Shown here one piece after another: positions 54,599 through 55,325 of a stretch of DNA of 64,000 bases. Within the stretch, counting starts at the first letter, position 1, and the number at the start of each line of letters is the position of its first letter. Origin of the DNA: Eledone cirrhosa (Eukaryota); contig OZ024743.1 in NCBI GenBank assembly GCA_964016885.1, forward strand, positions 202,368,001 through 202,432,000, read 5' to 3'. A program made the translations under genes and the position numbers. The notes below the pieces were generated by a model. It was not told the origin of the DNA and searched no databases. It worked only from the letters and a program-made list of their open reading frames with translations.

Positions 54599-55325
54599 AA
54601 GTATGTATACGTACATACATATATGTATACAGACGTACAGTAGTATGTATATATATATACATACATGCACATATATATATATATATATGTACGTATGGGT
54701 TTACCGAGCATTTATTATAATGTTCGGTTTGTTTGTAAACAAACAGTCCGAATTAAGCCGTACAATGTTCGGCAACCATCGTTGCCCTTTTGTTCAACAC
54801 TGACAAAGGAACGATGAACTAGTTTCTAGCTTATTGGCTGTCATCAGCATTATATACCTTCCTGTCAGTCGATTGAACATTTGAAAGCATATACTTTCCT
54901 TATGCATATTAACAGCTGCGCAGCCTAATTTGCATGTCGAGTGAGCTAGTCGGCCGTGCGTACCGAAAACCATAAATGGAAAAATTGAAATTTCATTTTT
55001 CATTTTTTAGTACGGCTAATACTTAAAAATAAGTATATATACATACATACATATATGTATACAGATGTACAGTAGTATGTATATACATACAAAAGGGCAA
55101 CTATGGTTGCCGAACACAGTAAGGCTTAATACGGGCTTTTTATTTACATACAAGCCGAACATTATAATAAATGTTCGGTAAACCCATACGTACATATATA
55201 TATGTGTGCATGTATGTATATACATACTACTGTACGTCTGTATACATATATATATGTACGTATACATACGTATATTTAAGTACCAGCCGTACTAAGAGCG
55301 ACAAATGAAATTTCATTTTTTCCAT
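54599..55325. mobile_element. Retrozyme-like family H: ~1.1 units (period 432) plus an inverted copy spanning the unit junction
   Basis: aagtat.tatac.tacatacatatatgtatacaga.gtacagtagtatg at 54599 and 55031; 55090-55325 inverted. Confidence 0.75.
54814..54850 (-). ncRNA. Minimal type I hammerhead ribozyme
   Basis: atg-CTGATGA-cagc caataa gcta-GAAA-ctag-TT-cat, nested in a longer flanking stem. Confidence 0.7.

Follow-up and report, generated by a model that had tools for sequence, protein, structure and literature searches.

Architecture of the insertion

The window, a 64,000-nucleotide stretch of the Eledone cirrhosa genome (contig OZ024743.1 of assembly GCA_964016885.1, positions 202,368,001 to 202,432,000, forward strand), carries an aged two-armed insertion of an abundant non-coding hammerhead repeat, seated in a TA microsatellite (Table 1). 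The sense strand of the element is the minus strand of the window, and its two arms belong to the same subfamily and are joined 5'-to-5'. As a sequence-only reading of the locus had proposed, more than one unit is followed by an inverted copy that runs across the unit junction: segment 54599-54657 recurs at 55031-55089 with a period of 432 and 55 of 59 letters alike, and the inverted copy (55089-55329) shows 87% identity to the direct arm across 54592-54793 and reaches the equivalent of 54972, past the junction as that reading had drawn it. A target-site duplication, which in non-LTR retrozymes exceeds 4 bp when present, is unreadable here and in the family loci, since the element ends merge into (TA)n. 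No frame of at least 150 amino acids lies over the insertion.

Table 1. Features of the two-armed insertion and of a related insertion in the window (window coordinates)
Feature	Position	Strand	Remarks or basis
Arm A	54596/54599..55089	-	491 bp, 1.13 units of 432 bp; 5'-truncated at 55089
Arm A 3' end	54596/54599	-	fixed site A, passes into (TA)n
Arm B	55089..55329	+	inverted; 3' end at fixed site B, passes into (TA)n
Internal "tail" copy (~56 nt between sites A and B)	54972..55027	-	subfamily/end mapping
TA/CA-rich self-complementary hairpin, just 5' of site A	54599..54699	-	folding
Type I hammerhead motif with distal stem	54807..54863	-	core C3 at 54847, position 17 at 54817
Long stem extending hammerhead stem I	54792..54878	-	folding, alignment
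Hairpin with octamer-like motif (54928-54935)	54903..54935	-	motif kept in sister families
(TA)n target, left flank	54577..54598	.	sequence
(TA)n target, right flank	55323..55336	.	sequence
Separate short insertion, GUA subfamily	48262..48418	+	ends at site A, between (TA)n runs

The sole hammerhead of the insertion is in arm A; arm B begins about 24 nt past the predicted cut and is therefore without one, so that two consecutive hammerheads, by which 10.64898/2026.07.22.740005 defines an active retrozyme copy, are not found in this copy. Its single hammerhead carries extra mismatches, and the copy is likely inactive as a source, and a dead end. A further fragment, previously placed at 48262-48410, does exist and extends somewhat further, but is an insertion in its own right, being 95% alike to a GUA-type unit versus 83-84% for the two arms of 54599-55329.

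Elsewhere in the window, a 311-bp tandem called family A (17831-18471) has two hammerheads (18001 and 18312, minus strand) with a GUA triplet and a palindromic loop; it had been described as having no evident similarity to the present unit, and the comparison indeed yielded only microsatellite-like words (best E 0.02). Hammerhead-like motifs of other families lie at 6920, 7234, 15576, 50847 and 61668, and a tRNA-like match at 63234-63289 is probably the head of a SINE. Two RT frames (1191-2531 and 28333-31735) were considered as those of a Penelope-like element (PLE) and rejected, being broken frames of LINE type (endonuclease, RT, zf-RVT).

The hammerhead and the fold of the unit

In the window copy, stem III of the hammerhead is a single A-U pair closing the palindromic loop CTAG, and the triplet is GUU, with the predicted cut between 54817 and 54816. 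A one-pair stem III with a palindromic tetraloop is also described for axolotl Amex1 (PMC7229834, 10.64898/2026.07.22.740005), and the minimal PLE hammerheads of PMC4209133 likewise have a weak, palindromic stem III for which dimerisation is predicted to be necessary, whereas the present motif differs from them by its long distal stem I and by the absence of the G-C pair (G10.1-C11.1) given there as usual at the base of stem II. The GUU subfamily of the window has a C.A pair at that position and the main subfamily a U.U, the latter as in axolotl Amex2 (PMC7229834, 10.64898/2026.07.22.740005); further mismatches in stems I and II are specific to the window copy. Within the unit the hammerhead occurs on the minus strand only, with none on the other polarity. 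Rfam returned no hammerhead match at the gathering threshold. A 35-nt pattern of the family's hammerhead core has 11,039 exact matches genome-wide and 0 in a reversed control, so the match is not due to chance.

The long stem and the hairpins at 54703/54719, 54771/54781 and 54903-54934 all lie where they had been located from the letters. The whole unit folds more stably than shuffles (z = -8.3), and removal of its microsatellite part leaves z = -5.1 (sense strand) and z = -6.0 (antisense strand), values similar enough that folding alone does not pick the strand. Across an alignment of 10 copies, both partners change in 11 of the 34 named pairs versus 3.8 expected, a count reached in 0 of 500 shuffles, although the structure was drawn from the same ten related rows and most of the both-side changes come from two diverged sisters. 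Among the covarying pairs are those of stems I and II and of a helix of seven pairs tying the tail to a region 55 nt past the cut; in the window this helix pairs 55011-55017 of the tail copy with 54756-54762, and it covaries across sister families. The hammerhead core is invariant, and core and stems are kept across diverged sisters. We regard the covariation as support for, not proof of, a structured RNA. The octamer-like motif we provisionally take to be a possible internal promoter.

Family size and subfamilies

Searching the same genome at the DNA level yielded 4,082 candidates; 40 were scored, and the top ones were 91-93% alike. Pattern counts across the genome, each with 0 matches in the reversed control, were 731 for the GUU subfamily of the window, 18,618 for a 25-mer lying close to the unit's 3' end (exact matches) and 39,184 for a looser hammerhead pattern that includes sister families. 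Clustering resolved four subfamilies, whose members differ by 2.3-3.3% from the subfamily majority, together with nine small clusters. With a non-coding unit of 420-434 nt and a GC content of 34-36%, the family lies within the bounds given for retrozymes (150-450 bp, GC below 50%), and tandems with at least two consecutive hammerheads exist in it, as in the five-hammerhead array L151.

The element thereby resembles the metazoan non-LTR retrozymes as described in PMC7229834 and 10.64898/2026.07.22.740005, with which it shares a type I hammerhead, a low-GC unit of 150-450 bp, the absence of an ORF, tandem as well as single copies, and co-occurring PLEs. In contrast to those accounts, most copies here are 0.3-1.6 units in two inverted arms rather than long arrays, there are two fixed 3' ends and a strict (TA)n target, and the window subfamily combines GUU with C.A.

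We considered whether a weak ribozyme accounts for short arrays and rejected the idea. A count from the match list had pointed that way (1 of 99 GUU arms versus 8 of 83 arms, p 0.012), but was not upheld by direct mapping, in which tandem arms numbered 3 of 44 for GUU and 6 of 48 for GUA (p 0.49; five overlapping loci were excluded from these counts and from those on fresh loci below). Arm length beyond the cut gave p 0.48 for the same two subfamilies, and the GUU triplet also occurs in sister families, one of them with a run of about 31 units. At G000:C1:5738324-5752446, about 31 hammerheads with GUU and a canonical stem II base follow one another at a spacing of about 466 bp, with one more opposed. 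A young sister family of 465 nt has a canonical GUC hammerhead with the usual G10.1-C11.1 pair; its loci (L189 and L211-L226; G000:C4:52768316 and others) have arms of up to 10.5 units. Another hammerhead family (L070:674-1003 and L073:2533-2818) is weakly similar (E ~0.001) to the unit upstream of the ribozyme.

Two fixed 3' ends and one-A-one-B pairing

Counted from the predicted cut, site A lies at about 219-220 nt and site B at about 275 nt, some 56 nt apart. Among 64 loci picked by position, site A accounts for 46 and site B for 51 of the 105 outer 3' ends (97 together), so the copies are not freely permuted, and nearly all of the A and B ends displayed are followed by (TA)n. The 5' ends are scattered, with a median arm of 337 nt and 32 of 99 arms longer than one unit. 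The repeated part consequently ranges from less than 30 nt to several hundred nt between copies, and the 59-bp "terminal repeat" earlier attributed to the element is nothing other than the 5' truncation point of the window copy. Its length is similar to that of the A-to-B tail by coincidence, and it is because of this similarity that the inverted arm crosses the junction. A purely local duplication had been named as the outcome that would overturn the first interpretation; many other copies cross the junction as well.

Back-to-back arms almost always pair one A end with one B end. In the position-picked loci all 26 classifiable pairs (31 in all) were A+B, as were 9 of 12 in the best-hit loci, where 8 more were unclassifiable and the 3 exceptions were AA or BB in multi-piece loci; together this makes 35 of 38 (p 3e-8), duplicate overlapping loci (L116, L119, L121, L124, L135 and L136) having been left out before counting. 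Sixty fresh loci gave 18 of 19 classifiable pairs (37 in all; one AA or BB), and the 465-nt sister family gave 15 of 15 (16 in all), read by eye. Also by eye, several seemingly single arms carry a very short partner arm. In 47 of 49 comparisons the two arms of a pair fell into one subfamily, the exceptions being L011 and L020; at L011:1852-2276 the assignment of the arms to different subfamilies suggests two template molecules.

Such a layout might be produced if the inverted arm arose by fold-back or self-priming, with the first arm or an antisense template being copied, as has been proposed for rotifer Penelopes (PMC3846280). The unit is rich in palindromes, a junction overlap of at least 10 nt occurs in 2 of 35 pairs, and the arms share variants, all of which would be in keeping with such copying. 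In 13 of 35 A+B pairs, however, including that of the window, neither arm holds the other as a contiguous stretch, L011 and L020 join different subfamilies, and fold-back copying leaves the pairing of an A end with a B end unexplained. We therefore consider it very improbable. Less probable still in our estimation is a viroid-like replicon, copied from RNA to RNA and reaching DNA only by occasional capture, or a satellite propagated through DNA recombination: strong folding and the existence of tandem arrays speak for either, and some arrays are indeed explained by duplication after insertion (for example, the ABAB pattern of L151), but the hammerhead is on a single strand, the ends are fixed rather than permuted, and the insertions are dispersed and bear a PLE footprint. 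Of the earlier description as a structured, viroid-like, non-coding retro-RNA, the parts that remain are retrozyme-like, structured, non-coding and retro-transposed; "viroid-like" does not, given the one-strand hammerhead and that footprint.

Relation to Penelope-like elements

The footprint in question comprises fixed 3' ends with an optional tail, ragged 5' ends, partial tandems, an inverted 5' copy and a microsatellite target, and all of these were found in the family. Insertions of EN+ PLEs are described as having partial tandems, an inverted 5' copy, a tail at one end and a (TA)n bias (PMC8557442), and PLEs as having two internal RT start sites with both DNA strands cut and extended (PMC11167929). 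The retrozyme insertions match the accounts in PMC8557442, PMC3846280 and PMC11167929 in 5' truncation, partial tandem, inverted 5' copy, one-end tail, two start sites downstream of the hammerhead and microsatellite target; they differ in that the tail is about 56 nt, versus 30-40 nt in PLEs, and in that neither an RT nor a GIY-YIG frame is present in the element.

The genome itself holds 10,597 candidates for RT and GIY-YIG frames. In one autonomous PLE family, read by eye, 28 of 30 copies terminate at either of two sites about 43 nt apart, beside (TA)n, and of 20 loci fetched, chosen partly for opposed frames, all 11 with both ends called were A+B, a pattern identical to that of the retrozyme. 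This young family (L317-L336) has two-armed A+B insertions and open frames some 900 aa long, and is a candidate source of PLE protein for work in vitro. The common A+B footprint ties the retrozyme insertions to PLE machinery, and the element behaves like a non-autonomous PLE while displaying the sequence-level features of a non-LTR retrozyme. A 49-nt segment of the window (55371-55419) shows 98% identity to the 3' end of the L064 PLE family; the hammerhead of that family likewise carries U at position 17, and the base of its stem II is a U.U.

The copies might alternatively be nothing but truncated terminal repeats of an autonomous PLE yet to be found, since most hammerheads of animal genomes trace to truncated PLEs according to PMC4209133, and frog retrozymes resemble PLE terminal repeats (10.64898/2026.07.22.740005). 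Against this, where an arm exceeds one unit, what follows is more of the unit itself, and arrays of up to five units contain no coding sequence from one hammerhead to the next. We judge this origin highly improbable. Counting against the reading that we favour, a PLE with the retrozyme unit as its own terminal repeat was not seen among the 80 top-scoring loci inspected (50 with GIY-YIG, 30 of one PLE family) out of many thousands of candidates, a sample of top scorers beyond which most PLE families may lie. Copies of the unit in PLE loci L055, L071 and L072 look like separate neighbouring insertions, and copies are also present in L292, L307, L310 and L316.

The probable RNA template

The predicted cut is read through in 62 of the 65 arms that reach it, indicating that cleaved linear monomers are not the main template. 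In the position-picked set 5' ends at the cut show no excess (3 versus 2.05 expected), while the best-hit set has a small excess, with 4 arms stopping in the first 10 nt past the cut versus 0.89 expected (p 0.013). Shared non-CpG variants number 6.3 per kb within an arm and 6.9 per kb between the arms of an insertion, versus 0.58 per kb between insertions, rates that are inflated by copies of small subfamilies forced into the four clusters (L141, L161 and L169); L151 was left out of this analysis and of that of 5' ends. Unshared differences within insertions (44-52 per kb) equal the control (44 per kb). In the sister family some variants recur in every pass of an insertion, for example in all 5 passes of L223 and in both arms of L219, which fits a monomer read repeatedly; gene conversion could also account for variants shared between arms. 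Adjacent units of sister arrays L214, L220, L225 and L223 have variants in only some of them, and one sister array repeats variants with a period of five units. Variants marking only some adjacent units fit multimeric templates or later duplication, not a single monomer circle.

Circular retrozyme RNAs are reported in coral, mussel and axolotl (PMC7229834), and circles have already been proposed as templates for more-than-unit PLE copies (PMC4209133). For the window element we infer a circular RNA from these patterns in genomic DNA; two sequencing runs of unknown kind behaved as genomic data, with very deep cover of repeats. The same two-ended PLE insertion might instead have used an uncut linear multimer from a tandem parent, with the hammerhead a passenger or acting later. 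Read-through of the cut fits this equally well, as do the nested variants and the five-unit period of the sister arrays and the atypical core-flanking pairs of the window's GUU subfamily. For an anole PLE in vitro, unprocessed RNA is described as the main substrate (PMC11167929), which fits as well. Against the two-ended reading with circles that we favour, the anole PLE is described as needing no hammerhead cleavage and as showing no strand difference in start site (PMC11167929), and 8 of 9 frog retrozyme dimers are reported without cleavage in vitro (10.64898/2026.07.22.740005). Uncut multimers would, however, require recent amplification of a single unit to explain insertion-specific variants in every pass and both arms, 5' truncation would presumably shorten the arrays in each generation without a route of regrowth, and diverged sisters have retained the core and stems of the hammerhead. 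Taken alone, this reading is unlikely, although a serious contender. From the sequence patterns, we hold a circular template to be about twice as probable as uncut linear multimers, and both may act.

A proposed two-ended model of insertion

The window copy is genuine and unexceptional, a decayed representative of an abundant retrozyme family that bears a PLE footprint. The explanation that we favour, and hold to be probable by a modest measure, is that it is a two-armed insertion of a non-LTR retrozyme, likely written into the TA microsatellite by a PLE enzyme and likely from circular RNA. Under this model, tandem source loci would be transcribed, and hammerheads, probably dimeric via the palindromic loop, would cut out monomers of about 425 nt, which would be ligated to circles while some multimers remain. 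A PLE RT/GIY-YIG protein would then cut (TA)n on both strands, one DNA end would prime at A and the other at B, and both cDNAs would stop at random and be joined with little microhomology.

More tentatively, and with slightly less than even confidence, we propose that PLE integration is obligatorily asymmetric, with one of the two cut DNA ends invariably primed at A and the other at B, probably through a dimeric protein, and that the same machine rolls round ribozyme-made circles, writing the retrozyme superfamily of 39,000 motifs. The PLE tail is described in the literature as optional or as often at one end only, and neither strict A+B pairing nor its extension to retrozymes was found in the main texts of the literature searched, on which the supplements of PMC11167929 and PMC8557442 may bear. 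The route by which PLEs give rise to tandem and inverted insertions is open in the literature, as is whether animal retrozymes travel as PLE-copied circles. A near-strict one-A-one-B rule, common to coding and non-coding families of one genome, yields a sharp prediction for the in vitro PLE system, for which the short structured unit offers a ready substrate. If the proposal is true, this genome records a step of integration that has so far only been proposed in papers.
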